This document shows positions 656 through 62,344 of a stretch of 64,000 nt of DNA, in pieces. Position 1 is the first letter of the stretch, and each line of letters begins with the position of its first letter. Position numbers and translations under genes: made by a program. The stretch is taken from contig OZ024750.1 of NCBI GenBank assembly GCA_964016885.1, positions 29,698,001 through 29,762,000 on the forward strand, written 5' to 3'. The stretch comes from Eledone cirrhosa (Eukaryota). Under the pieces are notes generated by a model that made no database searches, had not been told where the DNA came from, and saw only the letters and a program-made list of their open reading frames with translations.

Positions 656-752
656 TGAAAACTTCTTTCCGTCTATTTTTAGGATGCTATACTATACAAC
701 TTGAGGCTTGAGTGTGTGTGTATGTATGTATATATATAATATATATATATAT

Positions 753-1008: not shown

Positions 1009-1064
<56 letters not shown>

Positions 1065-13000: not shown

Positions 13001-16000
13001 AGTGATGGTTGTGGAGGTTGTAGTAACAGTGGTGGTGGTGGAGGTTGTAGTAACAGTGATGGTTGTGGAGGTTGTAGTAACAGTGATGGTTGTGGAGGTT
13101 GTAGTAACAGTGATGGTTGTGGAGGTTGTAGTAACAGTGATGGTTGTGGAGGTTGTAGTAACAGTGATGGTTGTGGAGGTTGTAGTAACAGTGATGGTTG
13201 TGGAGGTTGTAGTAACAGTGGTGGTGGTGGAGGTTGTAGTAACAGTGGTGGTTGTGGAGGTTGTAGTAACAGTGGTGGTGGAGGTTGTAGTAACAGTGAT
13301 GGTTGTGGAGGTTGTAGTAACAGTGATGGTTGTGGAGGTTGTAGTAACAGTGGTGGTTGTGGAGGTTGTAGTAACAGTGGTGGTTGTGGAGGTTGTAGTA
13401 ACAGTGGTGGTTGTGGAGGTTGTAGTAACAGTGGAGGTTGTAGTAACAGTGATGGTTGTGGAGGTTGTAGTAACAGTGATGGTTGTGGAGGTTGTAGTAA
13501 CAGTGGTGGTTGTGGAGGTTGTAGTAACAGTGGTGGTTGTGGAGGTTGTAGTAACAGTGGTGGTTGTGGAGGTTGTAGTAACAGTGATGGTTGTGGAGGT
13601 TGTAGTAACAGTGATGGTTGTGGAGGTTGTAGTAACAGTGATTGTTGTGGAGGTTGTAGTAACAGTGATGGTTGTGGAGGTTGTAGTAACAGTGATTGTT
13701 GTGGAGGTTGTAGTAACAGTGATGGTTGTGGAGGTTGTAGTAACAGTGATGGTTGTGGAGGTTGTAGTAACAGTGGTCGTTGTGGAGGTTGTAGTAACAG
13801 TGGTGGTTGTGGAGGTTGTAGTAACAGTGGTGGTTGTGGAGGTTGTAGTAACAGTGGTGGTTGTGGAGGTTGTAGTAACAGTGATGGTTATGGAGGCTGT
13901 AGTAACAGTGATGGTTGTGGAGGTTGTAGTAACAGTGATGGTTGTGGAGGTTGTAGTAACAGTGATGGTTGTGGAGGTTGTAGTAACAGTGATGGTTGTG
14001 GAGGTTGTAGTAACAGTGATGGTTGTGGAGGTTGTAGTAACAGTGGTGGTGGTGGAGGTTGTAGTAACAGTGATGGTTGTGGAGGTTGTAGTAACAGTGG
14101 TGGTGGTGGAGGTTGTAGTAACAGTGATTGTTGTGGAGGTTGTAGTAACAGTGATGGTTGTGGAGGTTGTAGTAACAGTGGTGGTGGTGGAGGTTGTAGT
14201 AACAGTGATGGTTGTGGAGGTTGTAGTAACAGTGGTGGTTGTGGAGGTTGTAGTAACAGTGGTGGTTGTGGAGGTTGTAGTAACAGTGGTGGTGGTGGAG
14301 GTTGTAGTAACAGTGGTGGTGGTGGAGGTTGTAGTAACAGTGATGGTTGTGGAGGTTGTAGTAACAGTGGTGGTTGTGGAGGTTGTAGTAACAGTGGTGG
14401 TGGTGGAGGTTGTAGTAACAGTGATGGTTGTGGAGGTTGTAGTAACAGTGGTGGTTGTGGAGGTTGTAGTAACAGTGGTGGTTGTGGAGGTTGTAGTAAC
14501 AGTGGTGGTGGTGGAGGTTGTAGTAACAGTGATGGTTGTGGAGGTTGTAGTAACAGTGGTGGTTGTGGAGGTTGTAGTAACAGTGGTGGTTGTGGAGGTT
14601 GTAGTAACAGTGGTGGTGGTGGAGGTTGTAGTAACAGTGATTGTTGTGGAGGTTGTAGTAACAGTGATGGTTGTGGAGGTTGTAGTAACAGTGATTGTTG
14701 TGGAGGTTGTAGTAACAGTGGTGGTTGTGGAGGTTGTAGTAACAGTGATGGTTGTGGAGGTTGTAGTAACAGTGATGGTTGTGTAGGTTGTAGTAACAGT
14801 GGTGGTTGTGGAGGTTGTAGTAACATTGATGGTTGTGGAGGTTGTAGTAACAGTGATTGTTGTGGAGGTTGTAGTAACAGTGATGGTTGTGGAGGTTGTA
14901 GTAACAGTGATGGTTGTGGAGGTTGTAGTAACAGTGATTGTTGTGGAGGTTGTAGTAACAGTGATGGTTGTGGAGGTTGTAGTAACAGTGATGGTTGTGG
15001 AGGTTGTAGTAACAGTGATTGTTGTGGAGGTTGTAGTAACAGTGATGGTTGTGGAGGTTGTAGTAACAGTGGTGGTTGTGGAGGTTGTAGTAACAGTGAT
15101 GGTTGTGGAGGTTGTAGTAACAGTGATGGTTGTGGAGGTTGTAGTAACAGTGGTGGTTGTGGAGGTTGTAGTAACATTGATGGTTGTGGAGGTTGTAGTA
15201 ACAGTGATTGTTGTGGAGGTTGTAGTAACATTGATGGTTGTGGAGGTTGTAGTAACATTGATGGTTGTGGAGGTTGTAGTAACAGTGATTGTTGTGGAGG
15301 TTGTAGTAACAGTGATGGTTGTGGAGGTTGTAGTAACAGTGATGGTTGTGGAGGTTGTAGTAACAGTGGATGGTTGTGGAGGTTGTAGTAACAGTGATGG
15401 TTGTGGAGGTTGTAGTAACATTGATGGTTGTGGAGGTTGTAGTAACAGTGGTGGTTGTGGAGGTTGTAGTAACAGTGATGGTTGTGGAGGTTGTAGTAAC
15501 AGTGATGGTTGTGGAGGTTGTAGTAACAGTGATGGTTGTGGAGGTTGTAGTAACATTGATGGTTGTGGAGGTTGTAGTAACAGTGGTGGTTGTGGAGGTT
15601 GTAGTAATATTGATGGTTGTGGAGGTTGTAGTAACAGTGATGGTTGTGGAGGTTGTAGTAACAGTGGTGGTTGTGGAGGTTGTAGTAACAGTGATTGTTG
15701 TGGAGGTTGTAGTAACAGTGATGGTTGTGGAGGTTGTAGTAACAGTGATGGTTGTAGTAACAGTGGTGGTGGTGGAGGTTGTAGTAACATTGATGGTTGT
15801 GGAGGTTGTAGTAACAGTGATGGTTGTGGAGGTTGTAGTAACAGTGGTGGTTGTGGAGGTTGTAGTAACAGTGATGGTTGTGGAGGTTGTAGTAACAGTG
15901 ATGGTTGTGGAGGTTGTAGTAACAGTGATGGTTGTGGAGGTTGTAGTAACAGTGATGGTTGTGGAGGTTGTAGTAACAGTGATGGTTGTGGAGGTTGTAG

Positions 16001-19000
16001 TAACAGTGATGGTTGTGGAGGTTGTAGTAACAGTGATTGTTGTGGAGGTTGTAGTAACAGTGATTGTTGTGGAGGTTGTAGTAACAGTGATGGTTGTGGA
16101 GGTTGTAGTAACAGTGATGGTTGTGGAGGTTGTAGTAACAGTGATGGTTGTGGAGGTTGTAGTAACAGTGATGGTTGTGGAGGTTGTAGTAACAGTGATG
16201 GTTGTGGAGGTTGTAGTAACAGTGATGGTTGTGGAGGTTGTAGTAACAGTGGTGGTTGTGGAGGTTGTAGTAACAGTGATGGTTGTGGAGGTTGTAGTAA
16301 CAGTGATGGTTGTGGAGGTTGTAGTAACAGTGAGTGGTTGTGGAGGTTGTAGTAACATTGATGGTTGTGGAGGTTGTAGTAACAGTGATTGTTGTGGAGG
16401 TTGTAGTAACATTGATGGTTGTGGAGGTTGTAGTAACAGTGATGGTTGTGGAGGTTGTAGTAACAGTGATTGTTGTGGAGGTTGTAGTAACAGTGATGGT
16501 TGTGGAGGTTGTAGTAACAGTGATGGTTGTGGAGGTTGTAGTAACAGTGATGGTTGTGGAGGTTGTAGTAACAGTGATGGTTGTGGAGGTTGTAGTAACA
16601 TTGATGGTTGTGGAGGTTGTAGTAACAGTGGATGGTTGTGGAGGTTGTAGTAACAGTGATGGTTGTGGAGGTTGTAGTAACAGTGATGGTTGTGGAGGTT
16701 GTAGTAACAGTGATGGTTGTGGAGGTTGTAGTAACATTGATGGTTGTGGAGGTTGTAGTAACAGTGGTGGTTGTGGAGGTTGTAGTAATATTGATGGTTG
16801 TGGAGGTTGTAGTAACAGTGATGGTTGTGGAGGTTGTAGTAACAGTGGTGGTTGTGGAGGTTGTAGTAACAGTGATTGTTGTGGAGGTTGTAGTAAAGTG
16901 ATGGTTGTGGAGGTTGTAGTAACAGTGATGGTTGTAGTAACAGTGGTGGTGGTGGAGGTTGTAGTAACATTGATGGTTGTGGAGGTTGTAGTAACAGTGA
17001 TGGTTGTGGAGGTTGTAGTAACAGTGGTGGTGGTGGAGGTTGTAGTAACAGTGATGGTTGTGGAGGTTGTAGTAACAGTGATGGTTGTGGGAGGTTGTAG
17101 TAACAGTGATGGTTGTGGAGGTTGTAGTAACAGTGATTGTTGTGGAGGTTGTAGTAACAGTGATGGTTGTGGAGGTTGTAGTAACAGTGATGGTTGTGGA
17201 GGTTGTAGTAACAGTGATTGTTGTGGAGGTTGTAGTAACAGTGATTGTTGTGGAGGTTGTAGTAACAGTGATGGTTGTGGAGGTTGTAGTAACAGTGATG
17301 GTTGTGGAGGTTGTAGTAACAGTGATGGTTGTGGAGGTTGTAGTAACAGTGATTGTTGTGGAGGTTGTAGTAACAGTGATGGTTGTGGAGGTTGTAGTAA
17401 CAGTGATTGTTGTGGAGGTTGTAGTAACAGTGATGGATGTGGAGGTTGTAGTAACAGTGATGGTTGTGGAGGTTGTAGTAACAGTGGTGGTGGTGGAGGT
17501 TGTAGTAACAGTGATGGTTGTGGAGGTTGTAGTAACAGTGGTGGTGGTGGAGGTTGTAGTAACAGTGATTGTTGTGGAGGTTGTAGTAACAGTGATGGTT
17601 GTGGAGGTTGTAGTAACAGTGATGGTTGTGGAGGTTGTAGTAACAGTGATGGTTGTGGAGGTTGTAGTAACAGTGGTGGTGGTGGAGGTTGTAGTAACAG
17701 TGGTGGTGGTGGAGGTTGTAGTAACAGTGATGGTTGCGGAGGTTGTAGTAACAGTGATTGTTGTGGAGGTTGTAGTAACAGTGATGGTTGTGGAGGTTGT
17801 AGTAACAGTGATGGTTGTGGAGGTTGTAGTAACAGTGATTGTTGTGGAGGTTGTAGTAACAGTGATTGTTGTGGAGGTTGTAGTAACAGTGATGGTTGTG
17901 GAGGTTGTAGTAACAGTGATGGTTGTGGAGGTTGTAGTAACAGTGATGGTTGTGGAGGTTGTAGTAACAGTGATGGTTGTGGAGGTTGTAGTAACAGTGA
18001 TGGTTGTGGAGGTTGTAGTAACAGTGATGGTTGTGGAGGTTGTAGTAACAGTGATGGTTGTGGAGGTTGTAGTAACAGTGATGGTTGTGGAGGTTGTAGT
18101 AACAGTGATTGTTGTGGGAGGTTGTAGTAACAGTGATTGTTGTGGAGGTTGTAGTAACAGTGATGGTTGTGGAGGTTGTAGTAACAGTGATGGTTGTGGA
18201 GGTTGTAGTAACAGTGATGGTTGTGGAGGTTGTAGTAACAGTGAGTGGTGGTGGAGGTTGTAGTAACAGTGATGGTTGTGGAGGTTGTAGTAACAGTGAT
18301 GGTTGTGGAGGTTGTAGTAACAGTGATGGTTGTGGAGGTTGTAGTAACAGTGGATGGTGGTGGAGGTTGTAGTAACAGTGGTGGTGGTGGAGGTTGTAGT
18401 AACAGTGATGGTTGTGGAGGTTGTAGTAACAGTGATGGTTGTGGAGGTTGTAGTAACAGTGATTGTTGTGGGGGTTGTAGTAACAGTGATGGTTGTGGAG
18501 GTTGTAGTAACAGTGATTGTTGTGGAGGTTGTAGTAACAGTGGTGGTGGTGGAGGTTGTAGTAACAGTGATGGTTGTGGAGGTTGTAGTAACAGTGATGG
18601 TTGTGGAGGTTGTAGTAACAGTGATGGTTGTGGAGGTTGTAGTAACAGTGATTGTTGTGGAGGTTGTAGTAACAGTGGTGGTGGTGGAGGTTGTAGTAAC
18701 AGTGATGGTTGTGGAGGTTGTAGTAACAGTGATTGTTGTGGAGGTTGTAGTAACAGTGATGGTTGTGGAGGTTGTAGTAACAGTGGTGGTGGTGGAGGTT
18801 GTTGTAACAGTGATTGTTGTGGAGGTTGTAGTAACAGTGATGGTTGTGGAGGTTGTAGTAACAGTGATGGTTGTGGAGGTTGTAGTAACAGTGATAGTTG
18901 TGGAGGTTGTAGTAACAGTGATTGTTGTGGAGGTTGTAGTAACAGTGATTGTTGTGGAGGTTGTAGTAACAGTGATGGTTGTGGAGGTTGTAGTAACAGT

Positions 19001-22000
19001 GATGGTTGTGGAGGTTGTAGTAACAGTGATGGTTGTGGAGGTTGTAGTAACAGTGATGGTTGTGGAGGTTGTAGTAACAGTGAGTGGTGTGGAGGTTGTA
19101 GTAACAGTGATTGTTGTGGAGGTTGTAGTAACAGTGATGGTTGTGGAGGTTGTAGTAACAGTGATGGTTGTGGAGGTTGTAGTAACAGTGATGGTTGTGG
19201 AGGTTGTAGTAACAGTGATGGTTGTGGAGGTTGTAGTAACAGTGATGGTTGTGGAGGTTGTAGTAACAGTGGTGGTGTGTGGAGGTTGTAGTAACAGTGA
19301 TGGTTGTGGAGGTTGTAGTAACAGTGATGGTTGTGGAGGTTGTAGTAACAGTGATGGTTGTGGAGGTTGTAGTAACAGTGATGGTTGTGGAGGTTGTAGT
19401 AACAGTGGTGGTGTGGAGGTTGTAGTAACAGTGATGGTTGTGGAGGTTGTAGTAACAGTGGTGGTGGTGGAGGTTGTAGTAACAGTGATGGTTGTGGAGG
19501 TTGTAGTAACAGTGATGGTTGTGGAGGTTGTAGTAACAGTGAGTGGTTGTGGAGGTTGTAGTAACAGTGATGGTTGTGGAGGTTGTAGTAACAGTGGTGG
19601 TTGTGGAGGTTGTAGTAACAGTGATGGTTGTGGAGGTTGTAGTAACAGTGTTGTTGTGGAGGTTGTAGTAACAGTGATGGTTGTGGAGGTTGTAGTAACA
19701 GTGATGGTTGTGGAGGTTGTAGTAACAGTGGTGGTTGTGGAGGTTGTAGTAACAGTGATGGTTGTGGAGGTTGTAGTAACAGTGATGGTTGTGGAGGTTG
19801 TAGTAACAGTGATGGTTGTGGAGGTTGTAGTAACAGTGATTGTTGTGGAGGTTGTAGTAACAGTGATGGTTGTGGAGGTTGTAGTAACAGTGATGGTTGT
19901 GGAGGTTGTAGTAACAGTGGTGGTTGTGGAGGTTGTAGTAACAGTGATGGTTGTGGAGGTTGTAGTAACAGTGATGGTTGTGGAGGTTGTAGTAACAGTG
20001 ATGGTTGTGGAGGTTGTAGTAACAGTGATGGTTGTGGAGGTTGTAGTAACAGTGATGGTTGTGGAGGTTGTAGTAACAGTGATGGTTGTGGAGGTTGTAG
20101 TAACAGTGATGTTGTGGAGGTTGTAGTAACAGTGATGGTTGTGGAGGTTGTAGTAACAGTGAGGTTGTGGAGGTTGTAGTAACAGTGATGGTTGTGGAGG
20201 TTGTAGTAACAGTGATGGTTGGGGTTGTAGTAAGTGAGGTGGAGGTTGTAGTAACAGTGATGGTTGTGGAGGTTGTAGTAACAGTGATGGTTGTGGAGGT
20301 TGTAGTAACAGTGGTGGTGGTGGAGGTTGTAGTAACAGTGATGGTTGTGGAGGTTGTAGTAACAGTGATGGTTGTGGAGGTTGTAGTAACATTGTAGTAA
20401 CAGTGATGGTTGTGGAGGTTGTAGTAACAGTGATGGTTGTGGAGGTTGTAGTAACAGTGATGGTTGTGGAGGTTGTAGTAACAGTGATGGTTGTGGAGGT
20501 TGTAGTAACAGTGGTGGTTGTGGAGGTTGTAGTAACAGTGATGGTTGTGGAGGTTGTAGTAACAGTGATTGTTGTGGAGGTTGTAGTAACAGTGGTGGTT
20601 GTGGAGGTTGTAGTAACAGTGATGGTTGTGGAGGTTGTAGTAACAGTGATGGTTGTGGAGGTTGTAGTAACAGTGATGGTTGTGGAGGTTGTAGTAACAG
20701 TGATGGTTGTGGAGGTTGTAGTAACAGTGATGGTTGTGGAGGTTGTAGTAACAGTGATGGTTGTGGAGGTTGTAGTAACAGTGATGGTTGTGGAGGTTGT
20801 AGTAACAGTGGTGGTTGTGGAGGTTGTAGTAACAGTGATGGTTGTGGAGGTTGTAGTAACAGTGATGGTTGTGGAGGTTGTAGTAACAGTGATGGTTGTG
20901 GAGGTTGTAGTAACAGTGGTGGTTGTGGAGGTTGTAGTAACAGTGATGGTTGTGGAGGTTGTAGTAACAGTGATTGTTGTGGAGGTTGTAGTAACAGTGA
21001 TTGTTGTGGAGGTTGTAGTAACAGTGGTGGTGGTGGAGGTTGTAGTAACAGTGATGGTTGTGGTGGTTGTAGTAACAGTGGTGGTGGTGGAGGTTGTAGT
21101 AACAGTGATGGTTGTGGAGGTTGTAGTAACAGTGGTGGTTGTGGAGGTTGTAGTAACAGTGATGGTTGTGGAGGTTGTAGTAACAGTGGTGGTGGTGGAG
21201 GTTGTAGTAACAGTGATTGTTGTGGAGGTTGTAGTAAAAGTGGTGGTGGTGGAGGTTGTAGTAACAGTGATTGTTGTGGAGGTTGTAGTAACAGTGGTGG
21301 TTGTGGAGGTTGTAGTAACAGTGATGGTTGTGGAGGTTGTAGTAACAGTGGTGGTGGTGGAGGTTGTAGTAACAGTGATGGTTGTGGAGGTTGTAGTAAC
21401 AGTGATTGTTGTGGAGGTTGTAGTAACAGTGGTGGTGGTGGAGGTTGTAGTAACAGTGGTGGTGGTGGAGGTTGTAGTAACAGTGGTGGTTGTGGAGGTT
21501 GTAGTAACAGTGATGGTTGTGGAGGTTGTAGTAACAGTGATGGTTGTGGAGGTTGTAGTAACAGTGATGGTTGTGGAGGTTGTAGTAACAGTGATGGTTG
21601 TGGAGGTTGTAGTAACAGTGGTGGTTGTGGAGGTTGTAGTAACAGTGGTGGTTGTGGAGGTTGTAGTAACAGTGGTGGTTGTGGAGGTTGTAGTAACAGT
21701 GGTGGTGGTGGAGGTTGTAGTAACAGTGATGGTTGTGGAGGTTGTAGTAACAGTGATGGTTGTGGAGGTTGTAGTAACAGTGATGGTTGTGGAGGTTGTA
21801 GTAACAGTGATGGTTGTGGAGGTTGTAGTAACAGTGATGGTTGTGGAGGTTGTAGTAACAGTGGTGGTTGTGGAGGTTGTAGTAACAGTGATGGTTGTGG
21901 AGGTTGTAGTAACAGTGATGGTTGTGGAGGTTGTAGTAACAGTGATGGTTGTGGAGGTTGTAGTAACAGTGATGGTTGTGGAGGTTGTAGTAACAGTGGT

Positions 22001-24462
22001 GGTTGTGGAGGTTGTAGTAACAGTGGTGGTTGTGGAGGTTGTAGTAACAGTGATGGTTGTGGAGGTTGTAGTAACAGTGGTGGTTGTGGAGGTTGTAGTA
22101 ACAGTGATGGTTGTGGAGGTTGTAGTAACAGTGATGGTTGTGGAGGTTGTAGTAACAGTGGTGGTTGTGGAGGTTGTAGTAACAGTGGTGGTTGTGGAGG
22201 TTGTAGTAACAGTGATGGTTGTGGAGGTTGTAGTAACAGTGGTGGTTGTGGAGGTTGTAGTAACAGTGATGGTTGTGGAGGTTGTAGTAACAGTGATGGT
22301 TGTGGAGGTTGTAGTAACAGTGATGGTTGTGGAGGTTGTAGTAACAGTGATGGTTGTGGAGGTTGTAGTAACAGTGGTGGTTGTGGAGGTTGTAGTAACA
22401 GTGGTGGTTGTGGAGGTTGTAGTAACAGTGGTGGTTGTGGAGGTTGTAGTAACAGTGATGGTTGTGGAGGTTGTAGTAACAGTGGTGGTTGTGGAGGTTG
22501 TAGTAACAGTGATGGTTGTGGAGGTTGTAGTAACAGTGATGGTTGTGGAGGTTGTAGTAACAGTGATGGTTGTGGAGGTTGTAGTAACAGTGATGGTTGT
22601 GGAGGTTGTAGTAACAGTGGTGGTTGTGGAGGTTGTAGTAACAGTGGTGGTTGTGGAGGTTGTAGTAACAGTGGTGGTTGTGGAGGTTGTAGTAACAGTG
22701 GTGGTGGTGGAGGTTGTAGTAACAGTGATGGTTGTGGAGGTTGTAGTAACAGTGATGGTTGTGGAGGTTGTAGTAACAGTGATGGTTGTGGAGGTTGTAG
22801 TAACAGTGATGGTTGTGGAGGTTGTAGTAACAGTGGTGGTGGTGGAGGTTGTAGTAACAGTGGTGGTTGTGGAGGTTGTAGTAACAGTGATTGTTGTGGA
22901 GGTTGTAGTAACAGTGGTGGTTGTGGAGGTTGTAGTAACAGTGGTGGTTGTGGAGGTTGTAGTAACAGTGGTGGTTGTGGAGGTTGTAGTAACAGTGGTG
23001 GTTGTGGAGGTTGTAGTAACAGTGGTGGTTGTGGAGGTTGTAGTAACAGTGGTGGTTGTGGAGGTTGTAGTAACAGTGGTGGTTGTGGAGGTTGTAGTAA
23101 CAGTGGTGGTTGTGGAGGTTGTAGTAACAGTGATGGTTGTGGAGGTTGTAGTAACAGTGGTGGTTGTGGAGGTTGTAGTAACAGTGGTGGTTGTGGAGGT
23201 TGTAGTAACAGTGGTGGTTGTGGAGGTTGTAGTAACAGTGGTGGTTGTGGAGGTTGTAGTAACAGTGGTGGTTGTGGAGGTTGTAGTAACAGTGGTGGTT
23301 GTGGAGGTTGTAGTAACAGTGATGGTTGTGGAGGTTGTAGTAACAGTGGTGGTGGTGGAGGTTGTAGTAACAGTGGTGGTTGTGGAGGTTGTAGTAACAG
23401 TGGTGGTTGTGGAGGTTGTAGTAACAGTGGTGGTTGTGGAGGTTGTAGTAACAGTGGTGGTTGTGGAGGTTGTAGTAACAGTGGTGGTTGTGGAGGTTGT
23501 AGTAACAGTGATTGTTGTGGAGGTTGTAGTAACAGTGATGGTTGTGGAGGTTGTAGTAACAGTGATGGTTGTGGAGGTTGTAGTAACAGTGATTGTTGTG
23601 GAGGTTGTAGTAACAGTGGTGGTTGTGGAGGTTGTAGTAACAGTGGTGGTTGTGGAGGTTGTAGTAACAGTGATGGTTGTGGAGGTTGTAGTAACAGTGG
23701 TGGTTGTGGAGGTTGTAGTAACAGTGATTGTTGTGGAGGTTGTAGTAACAGTGGTGGTTGTGGAGGTTGTAGTAACAGTGATTGTTGTGGAGGTTGTAGT
23801 AACAGTGATGGTTGTGGAGGTTGTAGTAACAGTGATGGTTGTGGAGGTTGTAGTAACAGTGGTGGTTGTGGAGGTTGTAGTAACAGTGGTGGTGGTGGAG
23901 GTTGTAGTAACAGTGATGGTTGTGGAGGTTGTAGTAACAGTGATGGTTGTGGAGGTTGTAGTAACAGTGGTGGTGGTGGAGGTTGTAGTAACAGTGATGG
24001 TTGTGGAGGTTGTAGTAACAGTGGTGGTTGTGGAGGTTGTAGTAACAGTGATTGTTGTGGAGGTTGTAGTAACAGTGATGGTTGTGGAGGTTGTAGTAAC
24101 AGTGGTGGTGGTGGAGGTTGTAGTAACAGTGATGGTTGTGGAGGTTGTAGTAACAGTGGTGGTTGTGGAGGTTGTAGTAACAGTGATTGTTGTGGAGGTT
24201 GTAGTAACAGTGATGGTTGTGGAGGTTGTAGTAACAGTGATGGTTGTGGAGGTTGTAGTAACAGTGATGGTTGTGGAGGTTGTAGTAACAGTGGTGGTTG
24301 TGGAGGTTGTAGTAACAGTGGTGGTTGTGGAGGTTGTAGTAACAGTGATGGTTGTGGAGGTTGTAGTAACAGTGATGGTTGTGGAGGTTGTAGTAACAGT
24401 GATGGTTGTGGAGGTTGTAGTAACAGTGATGGTTGTGGAGGTTGTAGTAACAGTGGTGGTTG
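10037..24462. repeat. giant 27-bp minisatellite/satellite, ~530 copies
   Basis: Unit GTTGTAGTAACAGTGATGGTTGTGGAG with a few recurrent variants (GAT/GGT, GGT/TGT, CAGT/CATT). Confidence 0.99.
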
Positions 24463-24671
24463 TATTTATGGAGGTCATGGGAGATCGCTGTGATGGTAGT
24501 AGTGTTGGTAGTTGTTGTTGTGATGTAGTGCTGGTTGTAGTAACAGTAGTGGTAGTGGAGTGGTAGTGGTAGTTATGGTAACAGCAATAGAGATCATGGA
24601 AATTAGTAAAAACAAAACGACGACGACAATCATATTAATATTGCGTTACATAGAAAACAGTTTAACAGGAG

Positions 24672-25319: not shown

Positions 25320-25649
25320 CCTATAACTTCCGGTGGAATCGTAGGGGCGCCGTAGTAACCATACGGCGTTTCTTGGGAATTTTCAAGCCTAACGCAGCCC
25401 ATCTCCTCTCCAGGTCTGAACACAGCCGATTGCTTCCAGAAAAGGAAAGGGAGTGAGAAAACGGAAGTGAAAAACATATAGAAGAAGAATCTACCCCAGT
25501 GTGAGACTGGTACCTTTTTTTCATCGACCTCGAAAGGATGAAAGACAAATTTGACTTCAGCGGGAATTGAGTGCAGAGTGTGCAGAGAGCCGGAACGAAT
25601 ACTACAAAGCATTCTATCCGACGTTCTAACGATTCTGAAAATTCGCCGC
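25320..25649 (-). mobile_element. SINE A head and core plus module B
   Basis: Reverse-complement homology to 8641-8965. Confidence 0.75.
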
Positions 25650-25650
25650 A

Positions 25651-25858
25651 TATCGGTAGAGCTTCGGACAACGTGCTTCGCAGCATAGAGTTACGGGCCT
25701 TTACGTTCTGAGTTCAAATTCCTCCGAGGTTAGCTTTGCTTTTCATCCTTCTTACAAGGTTGATAAAATAAAGCACCAGTAATACACTGGGGTTGATTTA
25801 ATCGACTTTCCACTCCCATTTAAATTGCTGGTCTTGTGCCTAAAGTAGAAACAATTCT
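25651..25858 (+). mobile_element. SINE family A
   Basis: B box GAGTTCAAATTCC, core, and CCTAAAGTAGAAACAATT end; head-to-head with the previous copy. Confidence 0.8.
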
Positions 25859-27775: not shown

Positions 27776-27839
27776 CTGAATGCTGTCTAGTTCGATGGTT
27801 TCATGGATCAAGTTGGTGACACTGTACACAGACTTAAAT

Positions 27840-30800
27840 AGCAGCAACAACACCAGCAGCACCAGTAGCAGTAACAACACCAGCAGCACCAGCAGCACCA
27901 GTAGCAGTAACAACACCAGCAGCACCAGTGGCAGTAACAACACCAGCAGCACCAGTAGCAGTAACAACACCAGTAGCAGTAACAACAACAACACCAGCAG
28001 CACCAGTAACAACAACACCACCAGCAGCACCAGTAGCAGTAACAACACCAGCAGCACCAGTAGCAACAACAACACCAGTAGCAGTAACAACAACAACAAC
28101 AGTAACAGCAACAGCAGTAATAACAACTGTCACAATAATACCACCACCAGCAGTAATAACAACAACAACAACAACAACAACAGTAACAACGATACCAGCA
28201 GCTGCAATAACGACACCAACAGCAGTAGCAATAACAACAACAGTAGTAGTAACAACGATACCACCACCAGCAGCAGCAGCAGCAGCTCAATAATGACATC
28301 AACAGCAATAGCAATAATAACACCATCATCAGCAGCAGTAATAACAACAGTAACGACGATACCAGCAGCAACAGCAGTAGTAACACCAGGAGCAGCAGTA
28401 ATAACAACAACAGTAACACCACCACCACCACCGGCAGCAGTAATAACACCACCACCACCACCGGCAGTAACACCACCACCACCACCATCAGCAGTAACAA
28501 CACCACCACCACCACCACCACCACCACCAGCAGTAACAACACCACCACCACCACCATCAACAGTAACAACACCACCACCACCACCGGCAGTAACAACACC
28601 ACCACCACCACCATCAACAGTAACAACACCACCACCACCACCATCAACAGTAACACCACCACCACCACCACCATCAACAGTAACAACACCACCACCACCA
28701 CCACCGGCAGTAACACCACCACCACCACCATCGGCAGTAACAACACCACCACCACCGGCAGTAACACCACCACCACCACCATCGGCAGTAACAACACCAC
28801 CACCACCACCGGCAGTAACAACACCACCACCACCACCGGCAGTAACAACACCACCACCACCACCGGCAGTAACAACACCACCACCACCACCATCAACAGT
28901 AACAACACCACCACCACCACCGGCAGTAACAACACCACCACCACCACCATCAACAGTAACAACACCACCACCACCACCATCAACAGTAACAACACCACCA
29001 CCACCACCATCAACAGTAACAACACCACCACCACCACCATCGGCAGTAACAACACCACCACCATCGGCAGTAACACCACCACCACCACCACCGGCAGTAA
29101 CAACACCACCACCACCACCGGCAGTAACACCACCACCACCACCATCAACAGTAACAACACCACCACCACCACCGGCAGTAACACCACCACCACCACCATC
29201 GGCAGTAACAACACCACCACCACCGGCAGTAACAACACCACCACCACCATCGGCAGTAACAATACCACCACCACCACCGGCAGTAACAACACCACCACCA
29301 CCATCGGCAGTAACAACACCACCACCACCGGCAGTAACACCACCACCACCACCACCACCGGCAGTAACACCACCACCACCACCGGCAGTAACACCACCAC
29401 CACCACCATCGGCAGTAACAACACCACCACCACCGGCAGTAACAACACCACCACCACCACCGGCAGTAACAACACCACCACCACCATCGGCAGTAACAAC
29501 ACCACCACCACCGGCAGTAACACCACCACCACCACCACCGGCAGTAACAACACCACCACCACCGGCAGTAACAACACCACCACCACCACCGGCAGTAACA
29601 ACACCACCACCACCATCGGCAGTAACAACACCACCACCACCACCATCAACAGTAACAACACCACCACCATCAACAGTAACAACACCACCACCACCATCGG
29701 CAGTAACAACACCACCACCATCAACAGTAACAACACCACCACCACCACCATCGGCAGTAACAACACCACCACCATCGGCAGTAACACCACCACCACCACC
29801 ACCGGCAGTAACAATACCACCACCACCACCGGCAGTAACACCACCACCACCACCACCAGCAGTAACAACACCACCACCACCACCATCAACAGTAACAACA
29901 CCACCACCACCACCGGCAGTAACAACACCACCACCACCACCGGCAGTAACACCACCACCACCACCATCGGCAGTAACAACACCACCACCACCACCATCAA
30001 CAGTAACAACACCACCACCACCACCGGCAGTAACACCACCACCACCACCATCGGCAGTAACAACACCACCACCACCACCATCAACAGTAACAACACCACC
30101 ACCACCACCGGCAGTAACAACACCACCACCACCACCGGCAGTAACACCACCACCACCACCATCGGCAGTAACAACACCACCACCACCACCGGCAGTAACA
30201 CCACCACCACCACCACCACCAGCAGTAACAACACCACCACCACCACCATCAACAGTAACAACACCACCACCACCACCGGCAGTAACAACACCACCACCAC
30301 CACCGGCAGTAACACCACCACCACCACCATCGGCAGTAACAACACCACCACCACCACCATCAACAGTAACAACACCACCACCACCACCGGCAGTAACACC
30401 ACCACCACCACCATCGGCAGTAACAACACCACCACCACCACCATCAACAGTAACAACACCACCACCACCACCGGCAGTAACAACACCACCACCACCACCG
30501 GCAGTAACACCACCACCACCACCATCGGCAGTAACAACACCACCACCACCACCGGCAGTAACACCACCACCACCACCACCAGCAGTAACAACACCACCAC
30601 CACCACCATCAACAGTAACAACACCACCACCACCACCGGCAGTAACAACACCACCACCACCACCGGCAGTAACACCACCACCACCACCACCAGCAGTAAC
30701 AACACCACCACCACCACCATCAACAGTAACAACACCACCACCACCACCGGCAGTAACAACACCACCACCACCATCGGCAGTAACAACACCACCACCATCG

Positions 30801-32940
30801 GCAGTAACAACACCACCACCACCACCGGCAGTAACACCACCACCACCACCATCGGCAGTAACAACACCACCACCACCGGCAGTAACAACACCACCACCAC
30901 CATCGGCAGTAACAACACCACCACCACCGGCAGTAACACCACCACCACCACCATCGGCAGTAACAACACCACCACCACCGGCAGTAACAACACCACCACC
31001 ACCACCGGCAGTAACAACACCACCACCACCACCATCAACAGTAACAACACCACCACCACCACCATCAACAGTAACAACACCACCACCACCACCATCAACA
31101 GTAACAACACCACCACCACCACCGGCAGTAACAACACCACCACCACCACCGGCAGTAACAACACCACCACCACCACCGGCAGTAACAACACCACCACCAC
31201 CACCGGCAGTAACAACACCACCACCACCACCGGCAGTAACAACACCACCACCACCATCGGCAGTAACAACACCACCACCACCGGCAGTAACAACACCACC
31301 ACCACCACCGGCAGTAACACCACCACCACCACCATCGGCAGTAACAACACCACCACCACCATCGGCAGTAACAACACCACCACCACCACCAGCAGTAACA
31401 ACACCACCACCACCACCGGCAGTAACAACACCACCACCACCATCGGCAGTAACAACACCACCACCACCACCGGCAGTAACAACACCACCACCACCACCGG
31501 CAGTAACAACACCATCACCACCACCGGCAGTAACAACACCACCACCACCATCGGCAGTAACAACACCACCACCACCGGCAGTAACAACACCACCACCACC
31601 ACCGGCAGTAACACTACCACCACCACCATCGGCAGTAACAACACCACCACCACCATCGGCAGTAACAACACCACCACCACCACCAGCAGTAACAACACCA
31701 CCACCACCACCATCAACAGTAACAACACCACCACCACCACCGGCAGTAACAACACCACCACCACCACCGGCAGTAACAACACCACCACCACCGGCAGTAA
31801 CAACACCACCACCACCGGCAGTAACACCACCACCACCACCACCGGCAGTAACACCACCACCACCACCATCGGCAGTAACAACACCACCACCACCACCGGC
31901 AGTAACAACACCACCACCACCACCATCGGCAGTAACAACACCACCACCACCGGCAGTAACAACACCACCACCACCATCAACAGTAACAACACCACCACCA
32001 CCACCACCGGCAGTAACAACACCACCACCACCACCGGCAGTAACAACACCACCACCACCATCAACAGTAACAACACCACCACCACCACCGGCAGTAACAA
32101 CACCACCACCACCACCGGCAGTAACACCACCACCACCACCATCGGCAGTAACAACACCACCACCATCGGCAGTAACAACACCACCACCACCACCGGCAGT
32201 AACACCACCACCACCACCATCGGCAGTAACAACACCACCACCACCGGCAGTAACACCACCACCACCACCATCGGCAGTAACAACACCACCACCACCACCA
32301 TCAACAGTAACAACACCACCACCACCACCACCGGCAGTAACAACACCACCACCACCACCGGCAGTAACAACAACACCACCACCGGCAGTAACAACACCAC
32401 CACCACCACCGGCAGTAACAACAACACCACCACCGGCAGTAACAACACCACCACCACCACCATCAACAGTAACAACACCACCACCACCACCGGCAGTAAC
32501 AACACCACCACCACCGGCAGTAACAACACCACCACCACCACCGGCAGTAACACCACCACCACCACCACCACCATCAACAGTAACAACACCACCACCACCA
32601 CCACCGGCAGTAACAACACCACCACCACCGGCAGTAACAACACCACCACCACCACCATCAACAGTAACAACACCACCACCACCGGCAGTAACAACACCAC
32701 CACCACCACCGGCAGTAACAACACCACCACCACCACCGGCAGTAATAACAACACCACTACCACCAGCAGCAGTAATAACAACAACAGTAACAACACCAAC
32801 ACCACCACCACCAGCAGTAATAACAACAGTAGTAACGACGACAGCAGCAGCAATAACAACAACAATAACAACAACAGCAATAACGACGAAGCAGCAGCTG
32901 TAACAACAACAGTAACAACTACAACAGCAGTAATAACAAT
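27840..32940. repeat. (CCA/CAG/AAC)-derived variable minisatellite; main array ~28430-32740
   Basis: Units (CCA)3-7 + CCG/TCG GCA or TCA ACA + GTAACA(ACA); all length variation is in triplets. Confidence 0.95.
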
Positions 32941-33130
32941 GGCAGCGAGAGTGAATTTGTTATGGTGACAATAGTAAAAATAGTATTAACAAATACCAGT
33001 AGTAGTAGTAGCAGTAACAGTTGTAGCAGCAGTAAGGAGTAGTAATGGTGGTTGTTGTGGTAGTAGTGTTGGTGGTAGTAATAGTGGTGGTCTCTTTTAA
33101 CCAACTTCTCCACAACTAGTCTCCTAAACC

Positions 33131-33205: not shown

Positions 33206-33271
<66 letters not shown>

Positions 33272-33276
<5 letters not shown>

Positions 33277-33480
33277 AACGAGTAGGACCCCGACGGCTGA
33301 GCTCAAGCCGTTTCGACGGCTAATTCTGGGTCCAGAATTCCGGGTCCAGAAATAGCCGTCGAAACGGCTTGAGCTCAGCCGTCGGGGTCCTACTCGTTCC
33401 TATTACCCACTCTACTACCCTAAGTATTGAGTACTTTGGTGCGTTATGGTCCACCTGGTTCCTTACCACATTTCCTTTGT
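33272..33480 (+). mobile_element. fold-back element 1 (inverted HHR 3' half plus tail) in (TA)n
   Basis: 58-bp inverted arms (33272-33329 / 33346-33403, 1 mismatch) containing GAAACGGC-TTGAGCTCA-GCCGTC, followed by a ~77-bp unpaired tail TACCCACTCTACTACCC..; (TA)n on both sides. Confidence 0.85.
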
Positions 33481-33484
33481 TATA

Positions 33485-33519
<35 letters not shown>

Positions 33520-33523
<4 letters not shown>

Positions 33524-33704
33524 GAAAAGATTCGGGACCCTGACGGGTGAACTCCGGTTATTTCAACAGCTAGATCCGAACTGGTGAAACGGCCGGAGGT
33601 CAGCCCACGGGGTCCCGAATTTTTCATATTACCCACTCTACTACCCCAAGTATCGAGTACTCTAGTGAGTAATGGTCTAACTGGTTTTTACCGCCTCCAT
33701 TCTT
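33520..33704 (+). mobile_element. fold-back element 2 (older, diverged subfamily)
   Basis: Imperfect arms ATATGAAAAGATTCGGGACCC..GGGTCCCGAATTTTTCATAT, then the same tail TACCCACTCTACTACCCCAAGTATCGAGTACT; (TA)n on both sides. Confidence 0.8.
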
Positions 33705-33847
33705 ATATATATATATATAAGCGTAGAAATATCCGAGACCCCCAATGAACAACTGATGAGGAACCCCCGCCCCCGTTCTCGCTTTCTTCTTATTCTCACT
33801 CTATTTTAAGCTACCTTAAATAGCAACTACACAACCAATCCTATTTT

Positions 33848-34016
33848 CATCGGTAGAGGGTCGGACGCCATGCTTTGACGCATAGAGTTACGTCCCTTGC
33901 CATTCTGAGTTCAAATCCCGCCGAGGTTAACTTTGCCTTTCATCCTTACCGGGTCGATAAAATAAAGTACCAGTAATACACTGAGTATTTGCTGGCCTTG
34001 TGCCAAAAGTAGAAAC

Positions 34017-34020
<4 letters not shown>
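33848..34020 (+). mobile_element. SINE family A
   Basis: B box, core and 3' end intact. Confidence 0.85.
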
Positions 34021-34067
<47 letters not shown>

Positions 34068-34086
34068 CGTGTGCGTGTGTGTGTGT

Positions 34087-34200
34087 AAAAAGCAAACAGC
34101 TGAATTTAACGCTTGATATAGTAAGAAAAGATTTTTTACGTTTCGGACACGAACCCTCCATCAGAAGATAGAGCGAGAAATAAAAGATAAGAGAGTGAGA
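34087..34200 (-). mobile_element. Penelope-like remnant with decayed minimal HHR
   Basis: Minus strand: CTT-CTGATGG-AGGG TTCGTG TCC-GAAACGTA, then CAAGCGTTAAAT, shared with the 1090-1215 remnant. Confidence 0.5.
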
Positions 34201-34204
34201 AGAT

Positions 34205-34531
34205 ATCAACTTTGCCTTTCATCCATTAATAGTCGATAAAAAAAAAGTACCAGTCAAGTACTGGGTCGATTCTTCCTCTATATCCTTCCTCACTTCCTTT
34301 CTCTCACTCACTCTCTATCCTTCTCTGGAAGAAATCTACTTTATTCAGGCCTGGAGAGGAGATGGGCTCCGCCAGGTTTAAAAAATGCCCTAGAAATGCC
34401 GCATGTCAATATGGCGCCCCTACGACTCCTCAGGGGTTACCGGTCCATACCATACCTACTATATCAAGCGTTAAACTAATATTATTCATCATTGTACTGT
34501 GTCATTTGCTTTGTTATTTCTGCTTACTTTT

Positions 34532-36570: not shown

Positions 36571-37239
36571 TCCTCCATCACCATCACGGTGATCATAATC
36601 ACCTGCATCATCACCATCATCACTATTATCATCATCACCACCACTACCATCCACATCTCCCACACTACCTCCCGCTACCACCGCTACCACTACGACCACC
36701 ACCACCATCACCCACATAGTATACTTTCAATGGCACCATCACCTTCATCATTTTAAGGAACATTCTCTCTCCCCCTCTGCATCTTCTACTCCCCTTCCAT
36801 CTCCCCTTTACCATCTCCACTACCTCAGCCTTCTCCCCCCTCTCTATCTGTCTTCTTCCCTTCCATTCCCCATTTGCCGTTTTCTACCTCAGCCTTCTCC
36901 CCCCTCTCTCCATCTTTCTACTCCCCTTCCATCCAATACCTCTCCCTCTCCCTTCATCCTTAAAATATCAACAGATGGAAGCGGCCGACATACCAGAAAA
37001 ATAAGTGTATGATGTACAACACACACACACATATAGACACACAAACATAGATACTTACACACACACACACACATATACACATACTCACTCATAGACACAC
37101 AGGCAAACACACATATATATGTGTGTGTGTGTGTGTATCTGACTGTCTATATACGCACAGTCAGACACAAACACACACACACACACACATTATATATATA
37201 TATATGTATGTGTGTGTCTGCCTATCTCCACACAGTCAG

Positions 37240-37272
<33 letters not shown>

Positions 37273-37395
37273 AATATATATTTATATATGTGTGTGTGTG
37301 TGTGTGTGTCTGACTGTGTGGAGATAGGCAGACACACACATACATACATATATATATATATATTTATATATATGTATGTGTGTGTCTGCATATCT

Positions 37396-37509
<114 letters not shown>

Positions 37510-37592
37510 GTGTGTGTGTGTGTGTGGAGATAGGCAGACACACACATACATATATATATTTATATATATGTAAGTGTGTGTCTGCCTATCTC

Positions 37593-37627
<35 letters not shown>

Positions 37628-37665
37628 GTATGTATGTGTGTGTCTGCCTATCTCCACACAGTCAG

Positions 37666-37719
<54 letters not shown>

Positions 37720-37741
37720 CTGCCTATCTCCACACAGTCAG

Positions 37742-37793
<52 letters not shown>

Positions 37794-37803
37794 CTGCCTA
37801 TCT

Positions 37804-41709: not shown

Positions 41710-41922
41710 CACAGTCCACGCTGTAATGTGGCCGTGTAGGTAACACGGTAAAAACCTCCCAGTCCACACTGTAAACGTGGTTGGTGTTAGGAAGGGCATC
41801 CAGCCGTAGAAAACCAGCCAGACAGTCCTATGCGAGCAAGACAACCACTCTTGCCTCAAGTGGGAAAACTCCCGTCCAAACCCATGCAAGCGTGGAAGAT
41901 GGACGTTAAACGATGATGATGA
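41710..41922 (+). mobile_element. retroposon 3' end with (GAT)n tail (RTE-type tail)
   Basis: GGTTGGTGTTAGGAAGGGCATCCAGCCGTAGAAA..CCATGCAAGCGTGGAA..GGACGTTAAACGATGATGATGAT. Confidence 0.6.
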
Positions 41923-41967
41923 TATATATATAATATAAGATCAAAAGATGGTTAAAAGAGTTCCATG

Positions 41968-42038
41968 TATTTTATTATGCGCATTTCAAAAACAAATATC
42001 ATCATGGGATGATAGTTGCGTTCTCATCAGATAAAATA
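41968..42038 (-). ncRNA. type I hammerhead ribozyme within a ~160-bp element (41938-42099) in (TA)n
   Basis: Minus strand: TATTTTAT-CTGATGA-[GAACGCAAC TATCATC CCAT GATGATA TTTGTTTTT]-GAAA-TGCGCA-TA-ATAAAATA. 8-bp perfect stem I, intact core, palindromic stem III. Confidence 0.85.
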
Positions 42039-42093
42039 GGGAGACATGATATGAAGCTTAAAAAACACTTGCGAGCAGTGAAATGTTAAATCA

Positions 42094-42189
<96 letters not shown>

Positions 42190-51570: not shown

Positions 51571-53001
51571 CAGCAGAGTAACTTTGATAGTGTTTGCACC
51601 TGGCTACCGTCTCCAGTCTACATCATTGACGCCGTCCCTTTCTATTAACACATACACACACTCACACACATAAATGCGCAGACCCATATACACATACACA
51701 CTCACACGCACAAAAACGCACATACACAAACACACACACACATGCACATAAACATACACACAACTACGGATATCCCCCCACCCTCCCTCCCTCTCCACAC
51801 ATATATATGCACACGCATATACATGAACAGAAATTCATACACACACACAGACATTCACACACCCACATACACAAGCACACACAAATATGACCACAGACAT
51901 ACACAAGCACACACATAAACGCATACATACATACACACACGCACACGCACGGACGCACACATACATTTAGACATATACATTATATGCTTTTCACGGACGT
52001 ACACAAACACATGTACACACACACACATACTCATAAGTATAAGCACACACATGCACACACACACACTCACACACACAGAAATACACGTACGCGCACACAT
52101 ACGAATACACACAGTGTGCTTTTAAGGAATACACACTCACGCATACGCATAAGCATGTACATGCACACATACACATGCATTTCGCGCACACACATTCACG
52201 TATAATTTACATGCACACACTTACGTATGCTTTATACTCACGCACATGTTGATAAAGCGCAAGCACATACATATGCGCACTCATACACAAGAATACGTAC
52301 ACACGCGGGCTTACGCGTACGCGCAACACACACACACACACACACTCACACACATATATATACATATTTATATATATATACACATGCGTGCGCATTCACG
52401 CGATAAAGTTAGCTTTTGTTATTCCGAAAGATTTTATTTCTAGCATTAGGTATGTGCGTGTGTATGTATGTATGTATGTATGTATGTATGTATGTATGTA
52501 TGTATGATGGTATGTATGTATGTATGTATGTATGTATGTATGTATGTATGTATGTATGTATGTATGTATGTATGTAGATATGTATGTATATATGTATGGA
52601 TGTATGCATGGATACGTGTTTGCATTTATGTGTACATAGGTATATTAATTTTATATATAGTGAACTCCCAGCATTCGCGGTCCCGGTTATTCTCGGAATT
52701 TTCCTTAGAACCTAACTAATAATTGTTTCTACGTTTGGCACAAGGCCAGCAAATAACCCAGTGCATTACTGGTACTTTATTTTAACTAATAATTGCTGGA
52801 GGAAACCACCACATATTCGCGCAATCGTAAATATCGTTTTAACGCTAAATTATTAATAACAATATACCAAATTTGCCGGCCTATATTTTACGTTATATTT
52901 TGACGTTTATAGGCATTTCTATGGACCACGTCCAGTATTCGTTGTTTTTCGCTCTTTGCTGGTGCTCTAGGTACGTAACTCCCTGCTAATACCGGGGACA
53001 A

Positions 53002-53031
<30 letters not shown>

Positions 53032-53032
<1 letters not shown>

Positions 53033-53243
53033 ACGAAGGAAATGTGGTAAGGAACCAGGTGGACCATAACGCACCAAAGTACTCAATACTTGGGGTAGTA
53101 GAGTGGGTAATAGGAACCAGTAAGACCCCGACAGCTGAGCTCAAGCCGTTTCGACGGCTAATTCTGGACTAAAATAGTCCAGATTTTAGTCCAGAATTAG
53201 CCGTCGAAACGGCTTGAGCTCAGCTGTCGGGGTCTTACTGGTT

Positions 53244-53248
<5 letters not shown>
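53032..53248 (-). mobile_element. fold-back element 3
   Basis: Perfect 66-bp inverted arms (53110-53175 / 53183-53248) plus a tail nearly identical to that of element 1; (TA)n on both sides. Confidence 0.9.
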
Positions 53249-53443: not shown

Positions 53444-53627
53444 CTGGCAGTATCGGTAGAGGGTCAGACACCATGCTTTGCAGCAAAGAGTTACAGCCCT
53501 TTATGTTCAGAGTTCAAATCCCGCCGAGGTTAACTTTGCCTTTCGTCCTTACGGGGTCCATAAAATAAAGTACCAGTAATACACTGGGATAATTGCTGGC
53601 CTTGTGCCAAAAGTAGAAACAATTATT
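53444..53627 (+). mobile_element. SINE family A
   Basis: TGGCAGTATCGGTAGA..GAGTTCAAATCC..core..TAGAAACAATTATT. Confidence 0.85.
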
Positions 53628-55384
53628 AGTAATGGTAGAAATTAAAAGTCTAAGCAATTATATAAATTTACATATACGTATTTATATATTATGTATAAAT
53701 ATGTGTGTTTATATGCATATCTGTGTGTGTGTGTGTGCATGCGTCCGAGCGTGTCTGTTCGCGCTGGCACACTCTTTCCCTCTCTCTCTTCTAACCCCTC
53801 CTCCTCCTCTCTCTCTCTCTTTCGCTCTATCCTTCTCTCTCACCATCTCTTTCCCTCTCTTTCGTCCACTTCGTCAATCCTTCTCTCTCACCATCTCTTT
53901 CCCTTTCTCTTTTTCTCACTCTCTCTTTCGTTCTCTTCATCAATCCTTCTCTCTCACCATCTCTTTCCCTTTCCCTTTTTCTCACCCTCTCTTTCGTCCC
54001 CTTCATCTATCTTACCATCTCTTCCCCTCTCTCTCTCTCTCTCTCTTTACATGTCTATCTCCCTCTCTTTTTCTGAATGCTACAACAGATGCTAACTGCT
54101 GTTGCCACTTCTTTCTGTCGCGTCTCCAGGAGACGACTAATAGAGAAGAGGGAGGAGTAGAAAGAGGTGAGACAGGAAAGGTGGTGGTAGGGGTGAAGAA
54201 GAAGGGAGGGGGGAGGCATATAGTGTAAAGAGACGTAGCGGATATGTATATATGTAGATATTTATGTGTGCATATGTTTATCTATATATGTATGTATGTG
54301 TATATATGCGTATTTATGCATATATGTATATAAGTATATATATATATACACACACAAACACTTACATCTCTCTCTTTATATATATATATATATATAAGGG
54401 ATGGTATTAGTGGTGGTGGTTGGGTTCTGATGATGTTTGGTGATGGTGGTGATGGTGGTGATGATGTTGATAGTTGTAGTGATGTTGATGGTGGTGATGG
54501 CGGTGGTATTAGCGTCCGCAAAAAAATGTAGTGGGGAGAGAGAGAGAGAGAAGGGGGAGGGGTGTAGAGCATGCTACCAGAGTAAACGCAGTAGTTATGG
54601 TGATGGTAATGGTAGGAGGGAACGGTGGTGATGGTAAGGACGAGAAGGCGGCGGTGGAGAAGTATGGGTGAAAGGGTGGTGGTGGTGATGGTATCGGTAG
54701 GAGGGGGTGGTAGAGGGATACTTTAAAAAATTCTCAGCTTTTCATTCCTACACACACGCACATAGATATATACGCACATATAATATGTATCTCTATGTGT
54801 GTATGTGTAAACGGGTTGTTTCGCACGCATGTATGTATATATAAAGTTTGTAAATATGCACAAAGGTTAAATCACACGCACACACACACACACACACACA
54901 TCTACATCTACATACCGATACAACTCTACATACAACTACATCACCATCTTAACAGCTACATCAACACTCAGACATACATCTACACTCACAAACATCTACA
55001 CACACATACATACATCTACATGCAGATACATCTACATACACACACATCTACACACGCACATACATCTGCACGCAGATAGATCTACACACACATACATCTA
55101 CATACACACATCTACACATATCTACATACATACACCTACACATATACATCTGCACACACACACATACATACGTCTACACATTTACATCCACACACACGCA
55201 TCTACATACATCTATATACACACTTTTACACACACACAAACACACATACATCTACACATTTACATCCGCACACAGACACATCTACACACAGATACATCTA
55301 CACACTCACATATATGACAAGACAAACATGTATTAGTTACCTGGCTGAATATTTCATTGGTACCCTTGCGCCATTTTATTTTGG

Positions 55385-60345: not shown

Positions 60346-60368
60346 GTTGGTGGCAAAGAAAGAGGCAC

Positions 60369-62129: not shown

Positions 62130-62344
62130 TTCTCAAATATTTATTTTTCACCCCAAAAGGGGTGAAAATATATTTACCCGACGTCTAGAGTCCCAGACTA
62201 GGGGTTACAGTTAATTATACAAAATAATTCAAAAAAATCCACTCACAAAATTAGCAGGTAAAAATCCAAATCACAGAGCGATATGACACACGTCTACTAT
62301 CCTCAGACAGACAGACAGACAGATAGACAGCCAGATAGACAGAT

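Follow-up and report, generated by a model that had tools for sequence, protein, structure and literature searches.

In a 64,000-nucleotide stretch of the Eledone cirrhosa genome (contig OZ024750.1; hereafter the window), we describe short hairpin-plus-tail elements that are likely truncated, head-to-head end copies of a Penelope-like retrotransposon (PLE), whose parent, judged from sequence, probably belonged to the Hydra clade. With confidence somewhat above even, we read them as twin-primed insertions: 5'-truncated PLE copies of the 'inverted pLTR plus tail' kind, placed in (TA)n tracts and joined at helix II of a hammerhead ribozyme. Below, we set out the anatomy of the copies, the half hammerhead in their arms and the tail that follows, then turn to apexes, arm starts and joints in sequencing reads, weigh how the hairpins may have formed and compare them with known systems. 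Statements on published sources refer to the parts of those sources available to us.

Hairpin-plus-tail elements in (TA)n tracts

The span 33207-33860 holds, in order, (TA)34, element 1, a 43-nt TA tract, element 2, (TA)8 and a further fragment, with the following features:

33207-33274, no strand: (TA)34 target tract, left of element 1
33272-33337, minus strand: inverted arm of element 1, without a tail, beginning at a TAT site and fused to (TA)n
33322-33349, plus strand: apex of element 1, a 14-nt direct duplication within the presumed helix II region
33338-33403, plus strand: sense arm of element 1
33361-33387, plus strand: match to the 3' half of a type I hammerhead (GAAA, 5-bp helix III, near-palindromic loop, GUC, GGGG), the CUGANGA half being absent
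33401-33435, plus strand: TATT junction and small hairpin motif resembling Hydra-clade termini
33404-33481, plus strand: unpaired tail of element 1, 78 nt
33481-33523, no strand: (TA)n between elements 1 and 2, interrupted by one C
33520-33629, plus strand: decayed hairpin of element 2, second subfamily, with a shorter apex
33630-33704, plus strand: tail of element 2, 75 nt, with the small hairpin motif at 33636-33661
33704-33719, no strand: (TA)8 tract, right of element 2
33720-33830, plus strand: probable old, internally deleted relative with no hairpin left

An earlier sequence-only reading had described each element as a long hairpin with an unpaired tail of about 75 bp, and both descriptions agree with the folds and with the tail lengths listed. 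The two arms of element 1, 66 nt each, are 94% complementary, and its DNA fold (z -22.5) is matched by 0 of 200 shuffles; the hairpin of element 2 (z -8.7) is likewise equalled by 0 of 200, its arms mismatching at 13 of 52 aligned columns. Both subfamilies also have the common arm start claimed there: in elements 1 and 2 alike, the inverted arm ends at the TAT just 5' of the tail, merging with (TA)n. The further fragment suspected at about 33720 is probably a decayed relative of the elements. Its alignment to element 2 beats 1,000 of 1,000 shuffles, whereas that to element 1 is weak (38 of 1,000 shuffles as good), and it does not fold (z +1.3). A CTGATGA at 33753 within this fragment was considered as the missing hammerhead half and rejected, as no helix II and GAAA come after it and it aligns to the apex of element 2.

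A window self-search revealed a third full copy (53032-53248, minus strand) that the sequence-only reading had overlooked. It is 88% identical to element 1 and flanked by (TA)13 and (TA)29:

53032-53109, minus strand: tail of copy 3, 78 nt, ending in (TA)13
53110-53248, minus strand: hairpin of copy 3, starting in (TA)29, with an apex unlike that of element 1 and arms identical over 66 columns

No copies beyond these were found in the window by a profile search with arms and tails. TA tracts of at least 12 nt make up 1.55% of the window, and all three full copies sit in such tracts. Together with read ends in (TA)n (see below), this supports the proposed (TA)n targeting, a preference that is not specific to the Hydra clade, Naiads having it too.

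Half hammerhead in the arm

The arm of element 1 had been read as a stem III plus GUC triplet without the CUGANGA half. The match at 33361-33387 has this composition, its GGGG being the 3' strand of helix I, and upstream of the half hammerhead CTGANGA is absent in all three window copies. Element 2 carries the decayed version that had been noticed: its right arm keeps GAAACGGC and has lost GTC, while its left arm keeps CCGTC and is decayed after GAAA. Among 20,000 dinucleotide shuffles of the arm, 79 produced a half motif this good (GAAA, helix III and UH). In the window, however, the half-hammerhead descriptor fits 15 places, only two of them the element 1 arms, so the match is suggestive, not decisive. 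In Rfam, no hammerhead family was matched; the matches obtained were hairpin-shaped miRNA models below their gathering scores.

Variation among copies bears on the same motif. Of the 11 positions in core and helix I none has a variant, and of 43 elsewhere in the arm 13 do (Fisher p 0.033, in a test resting on 40 of 72 variant rows), a pattern that would fit selection on a working ribozyme in the templates. Additionally, two molecules could pair through the helix III loop, at a computed -32 kcal/mol, where the stem of the monomer reaches -7.8; for PLE hammerheads, helix III loops that are palindromic, and action as dimers, have been described (PMC4209133).

The tail and Hydra-clade termini

The Hydra clade combines a C-terminal GIY-YIG domain with canonical hammerheads and, in almost all families, (TA)n targets; one of its families comes from Octopus bimaculoides, and one has an attached inverted 5'-truncated copy (PMC8557442). 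Protein marks of the clade are the RT/EN motifs RWK, DKT and a CxCX5C linker, without CCHH. According to the supplement of that study, Hydra-2_Amil and Hydra-2_Ajap end in a hammerhead, TATT, 3-4 nt and a GCTCTRC-loop-GYATWGAGCACT hairpin. The three Eledone tails begin in the same manner, with TATT, 4 nt and the same hairpin, its outer pair being A-T instead of G-C. In Hydra-1_Ajap, from the same supplement, TATT closes the element and a variant of the hairpin opens it, so that the tail can be understood as the start of the next tandem unit. Looser versions of the motif occur in Hydra-1_Crog, and Hydra-1_Amil and Hydra-1_Obim are without the full motif (PMC8557442). Read by eye, the strict motif is thus present in 2 of 6 Hydra consensi and a variant in 1-2 more. 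In the window, the pattern has three matches, one in each copy, and none in 100 shuffles, with the proviso that it was drafted after both sets had been viewed, was relaxed at three positions and is not a published criterion. Six 10-mers from the 3' side of the motif gave five matches in the supplement of PMC8557442, three at Hydra termini and two inside other sequences.

Other properties of the tail are less distinctive. Alone, the tail hairpin folds weakly (z -0.3 to -0.8), and the conservation of its stem is not significant (p 0.09). A coding role is unsupported, with 9 of 22 variants synonymous in the best frame where 7.9 are expected (p 0.38). At 75-78 nt, the tails are longer than the 30-40 nt quoted for PLEs; comparable stretches in three Hydra consensi, counted by hand, measure about 54-80 nt (PMC8557442). 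In the available main text of PMC8557442, the words 'hairpin', 'stem-loop' and 'palindrom' do not occur.

Arms, apexes and joints

Within a copy, the two arms are nearly the same sequence, differing in 1 of 58 columns in element 1 and in 0 of 66 in copy 3. Between these copies three arm positions differ, and the same three changes are mirrored on both arms. Within-copy near-identity and mirrored between-copy substitutions mark the arms as per-copy inverted duplicates, and they indicate that the hairpin of each copy would have been made from one template. All three window copies thus consist of an inverted 5'-truncated copy adjoining a direct copy, with the tail on one side only. Their apexes all differ: beside the 14-nt duplication of element 1, element 2 has a short junction just before GAAA and copy 3 a longer antisense extension. 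The 11-nt loop of element 2 was also considered as a natural loop II and rejected, since it aligns to the antisense arm extension.

For a wider sample, four of 24 listed sequencing runs were aligned to the sense arm and tail of copy 3, with window coordinates as reference. In two runs sharing one species label, 22,670 of 12,467,656 reads (from a RAD library, and therefore biased) and 17,261 of 16,285,364 contigs aligned; this is a high-copy family with subfamilies. Runs X4 and X9, with 3 and 5 records at low depth, carry no weight for host range. The sequence-only reading had proposed plotting the positions of arm starts and apexes, and the two behave differently. Arm starts are sharp: in run X24, the switch to (TA)n falls precisely on the arm start, 53110, in 3,442 of the 22,670 aligned reads, and on the tail end, 53043, in 1,415 of them. 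Apexes, by contrast, are spread. The apex-side loose ends among those listed lie at 53163, 53164, 53169, 53173 and 53177; their agreement is poor (0.34-0.54 in the deep runs), and those at 53169, 53173 and 53177 add at least three forms to the three of the window. Such a spread is that of variable 5' truncation rather than of a fixed junction, but all of the forms fall within about 25 nt upstream of GAAA. The 7,144 molecule ends at 53163 in the RAD run were rejected as an apex, probably representing a restriction cut.

One apex loop is common to runs X1, X4 and X9, consisting of an A/T-rich loop followed by the complement of the strand before GAAA; it looks like a long natural helix II, and a fixed hairpin master would give the same. 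CTGANGA is absent from the listed loose ends, of which 30 letters each were covered. Two X4 contigs, not among the listed joints, have 126-127 loose letters beyond the presumed helix II (30 letters seen) and may be unfolded, parent-like copies.

Nine of the 11 listed joints connect 53072-53132 to 53160-53173 on the opposite strand; one of the other two links a tail end to an arm start, as between the adjacent elements in the window, and one is a skip. On the orientation deduced for them, the nine would be copies whose tail strand stopped before the inverted arm, although later deletions could have produced them. Such unequal strand ends are what two independent cDNAs would give. The listing has no plain apex-to-apex joint, and indeed shows no plain apex joints at all.

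Formation of the hairpins

An inverted 5'-truncated copy with a one-sided tail is a described PLE pattern (PMC8557442, PMC3846280, PMC8969392), and the statement of the sequence-only reading that PLEs form inverted pLTR structures with a 3' tail agrees with two of these sources (PMC8557442, PMC3846280). In vitro, the anole Poseidon protein cuts both strands of AT-rich DNA with a preference for ATT; reverse transcription starts at two sites bounding the tail, and both target strands are cut and extended (PMC11167929). From the anatomy, the flanks, the mirrored changes and the apex spread of the Eledone copies, we infer an enzyme, two priming events and a stop in helix II as follows. A (TA)n tract would be nicked on both strands by an RT plus GIY-YIG enzyme, and each nicked end would prime a cDNA, one at the UAU closing the tail on its 3' side, the other at the internal UAU that opens the tail. 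Each cDNA would then cross the hammerhead's 3' half and, as a rule, stop in the long helix II, where the two ends would be joined, aided by the helix's own complementarity. The product, being without CUGANGA, would be unable to self-cleave and thus dead on arrival; the template may have been autonomous, or else a non-autonomous derivative whose ribozyme was complete.

That the elements are minimal PLE integration products, as first suggested, gains support from the inverted duplicates, the variable apex, the non-inverted ends and the Hydra-like start of the tail. Several points count against twin priming from a Hydra-clade parent. No copy with CUGANGA was seen, nor any RT/GIY-YIG ORF linked to the tail end within the 64-kb window, and no PLE ORF is present among the 22 scanned of the 122 window ORFs. 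The tail measures 75-78 nt, the 3' end of Hydra-1_Obim is unlike the Eledone tails, and the tail motif is strict in just two of the six consensi. Furthermore, a single apex loop recurs in three runs, as a fixed master would give. Exact-motif scans returned 0 and 0 metagenome contigs, 0 and 3 genome contigs, and 1 and 0 viral contigs; the four loci, from prokaryotic and viral collections, match over only 18-23 nt and were set aside as chance.

The main rival to twin priming, which we consider rather unlikely, shares the PLE origin and has a single cDNA fold back on helix II, self-prime its second strand and undergo resolution at the internal TAT. Rotifer Penelope elements have palindromes at their inverted junctions, from which such self-priming has been proposed (PMC3846280). 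In Eledone all seen apexes lie in or beside a natural stem, and two of them look self-primed: one with a short loop, found in 69 contigs of run X1, and one in X9 that is a perfect palindrome. The mirrored substitutions fit it equally well. By itself, however, self-priming leaves unexplained why the second arm stops exactly at TAT and is fused to (TA)n, and in the nine opposite-strand joints the inverted arm seems longer than the tail strand, unless these joints reflect later deletions.

An improbable alternative holds that a few fixed hairpin-plus-tail masters are transcribed whole and retrotransposed by the PLE enzyme, as SINE-like non-autonomous elements whose hairpin is inherited. Very high abundance and clear subfamilies would suit such masters, as would the apex loop common to X1, X4 and X9, and the mirrored substitutions could mark different masters. 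Yet there are many apex forms, the left end is sharp rather than variably truncated, and the hammerhead half is conserved although it would be unable to work in such a master.

Least of all do we expect a MITE or foldback-type DNA transposon targeting TA, with a hammerhead-like stretch by chance: the copies are short, non-coding, numerous and TA-flanked, the half-hammerhead descriptor fits its 15 window places and the ends of element 2 match at 14 of 21 positions, TA bases included, but with a tail of 75-78 nt beyond it the inverted repeat is not terminal, comparison of the two ends in each young copy yields just 10 and 8 matches over 21 positions, TA bases making up about 5, the apex varies and the start of the tail resembles Hydra-clade termini. 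The sequence-only reading had named one fixed apex shared by all copies, with TIR and TSD, as the mark of an ordinary MITE; instead, apexes vary and the ends of young copies are not inverted repeats, a target-site duplication being unreadable inside (TA)n. Both the fixed master and the MITE fit worse than PLE twin-priming or self-priming.

Beyond the origin of single copies, we raise a tentative possibility. Helix II might serve as a programmed stop for reverse transcription and as a joining point, such that most new insertions would be hairpins without the catalytic 5' half, and the TATT-hairpin, seen in corals, sea cucumbers and octopods, might act as a cis-signal for the internal RT start or the endonuclease cut, defining the PLE tail. 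What the hammerhead does in PLEs, and how the inverted-plus-tail structure arises, are regarded as open questions (PMC8557442, PMC11167929). Mapping apexes and arm starts at scale, across a family of thousands of minimal copies with junctions clustered at helix II, could separate twin priming from self-priming, and the shared tail hairpin offers a concrete candidate cis-element. Moreover, many near-perfect 60-bp hairpins could supply double-stranded RNA, a putative role, in a lineage known for heavy RNA editing. A search of the openly accessible literature found no description of the Eledone hairpin-plus-tail family. The family is probably uncatalogued; the insertion pattern itself is already known for PLEs, and what is modestly new lies in apexes centred on helix II and in the tail hairpin shared with Hydra-clade termini.

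Other features of the window

Complete type I hammerheads occur elsewhere in the window. One (740-1010, plus strand, core at 818; CTGATGA...GAAA, 11-bp helix I) lies in an AT-rich insert between two (TA)n tracts and belongs to a different family that is not folded back. Another (41920-42100, minus strand, core at 42030; 8-bp helix I) also lies between TA tracts, its insert ending in TAT and TA repeats about 40 nt after the cleavage site; TATTTTAT-CTGATGA is common to both. Additionally, minimal-hammerhead-like motifs with CTGAAG or CTGATG, a short stem and CCGAAACGT are found at 1076-1240 and 34056-34200 (both minus strand), and both end close to a (TA)n or (CA)n(TA)n tract; these are probable 3' ends of other Penelope-like families. 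About 19 nt at 34100-34125 (minus strand) recur inverted at 34455-34480 (plus strand) around two inserted repeats, with TA tracts at 34056 and 34535 outside. This stretch was seen by eye, is absent from the masked search and is possibly an older, interrupted inverted unit.

The remaining repeats are of other kinds. A LINE at 56910-62132 (minus strand) has endonuclease, RT and zf-RVT domains split over two frames, with an upstream 587-aa ORF without a Pfam match; the best named relative of its RT half (56910-58742) is an Argonauta hians protein, 63% identical. Copies of a short interspersed repeat, which we take to be the common octopus SINE, lie at 33850-34020, 25490-25840, 52715-52790 and 53450-53630, some in inverted pairs. 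Masking assigns about 63% of the window to tandem or simple repeats, with very long strand-skewed simple-repeat arrays at 9834-24634 and 27780-32985. Nested palindromes of (CA)n-(TA)n-(TG)n, arrayed at 37100-37800 with a short constant spacer, account for most spurious miRNA-family matches.

Comparison with known systems

Non-LTR retrozymes (10.64898/2026.07.22.740005; PMC7229834) are, like the Eledone elements, short, non-coding, related to type I hammerheads and linked to PLEs. As described there, however, retrozymes are head-to-tail tandems with complete ribozymes, whereas the Eledone elements are head-to-head hairpins with half a ribozyme and are not arranged in tandem.

Naiad PLEs share the (TA)n targets and the inverted and tail structures, are present in cephalopods and are in some cases flagged 'HHR_half_core' (PMC8557442). 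They differ in being without canonical hammerheads, and the cephalopod Naiads are described as old remnants (PMC8557442), in contrast to copy 3 with its identical arms. Three 13-14-letter motifs of the Eledone element are, moreover, absent from the sequences available in the PMC8557442 supplement.

The inverted pLTR units of Penelope and Poseidon (PMC3846280, PMC11167929) resemble the Eledone copies in the head-to-head 5'-truncated copy, the one-sided tail, the junction palindrome, the AT-rich target, and the ATT and AC-rich stretch at the start of the tail. The Eledone units are set apart by their size of only about 200 bp, a tail of 75-78 rather than 30-40 nt, the absence of a coding signal in the tail, and truncation points that crowd into about 25 nt at helix II.

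Lastly, EN+ PLEs of the Hydra clade (Hydra-2_Amil, Hydra-2_Ajap, Hydra-1_Obim and Penelope-13_HM; PMC8557442) differ from the Eledone elements, in which no ORF was seen and just the ribozyme's 3' half remains. Compared with the Hydra hammerheads listed there, the Eledone half has a longer helix III with a longer palindromic loop, and the Eledone sequence is not that of Hydra-1_Obim. In common, the two have (TA)n targets, a type I hammerhead (half of it in Eledone) with a real helix III near the 3' end, and TATT followed by an RCTCT...GAGYACT hairpin downstream of the ribozyme. The clade is, furthermore, present in Octopus, and one Hydra family carries an inverted 5'-truncated copy of its own (PMC8557442).
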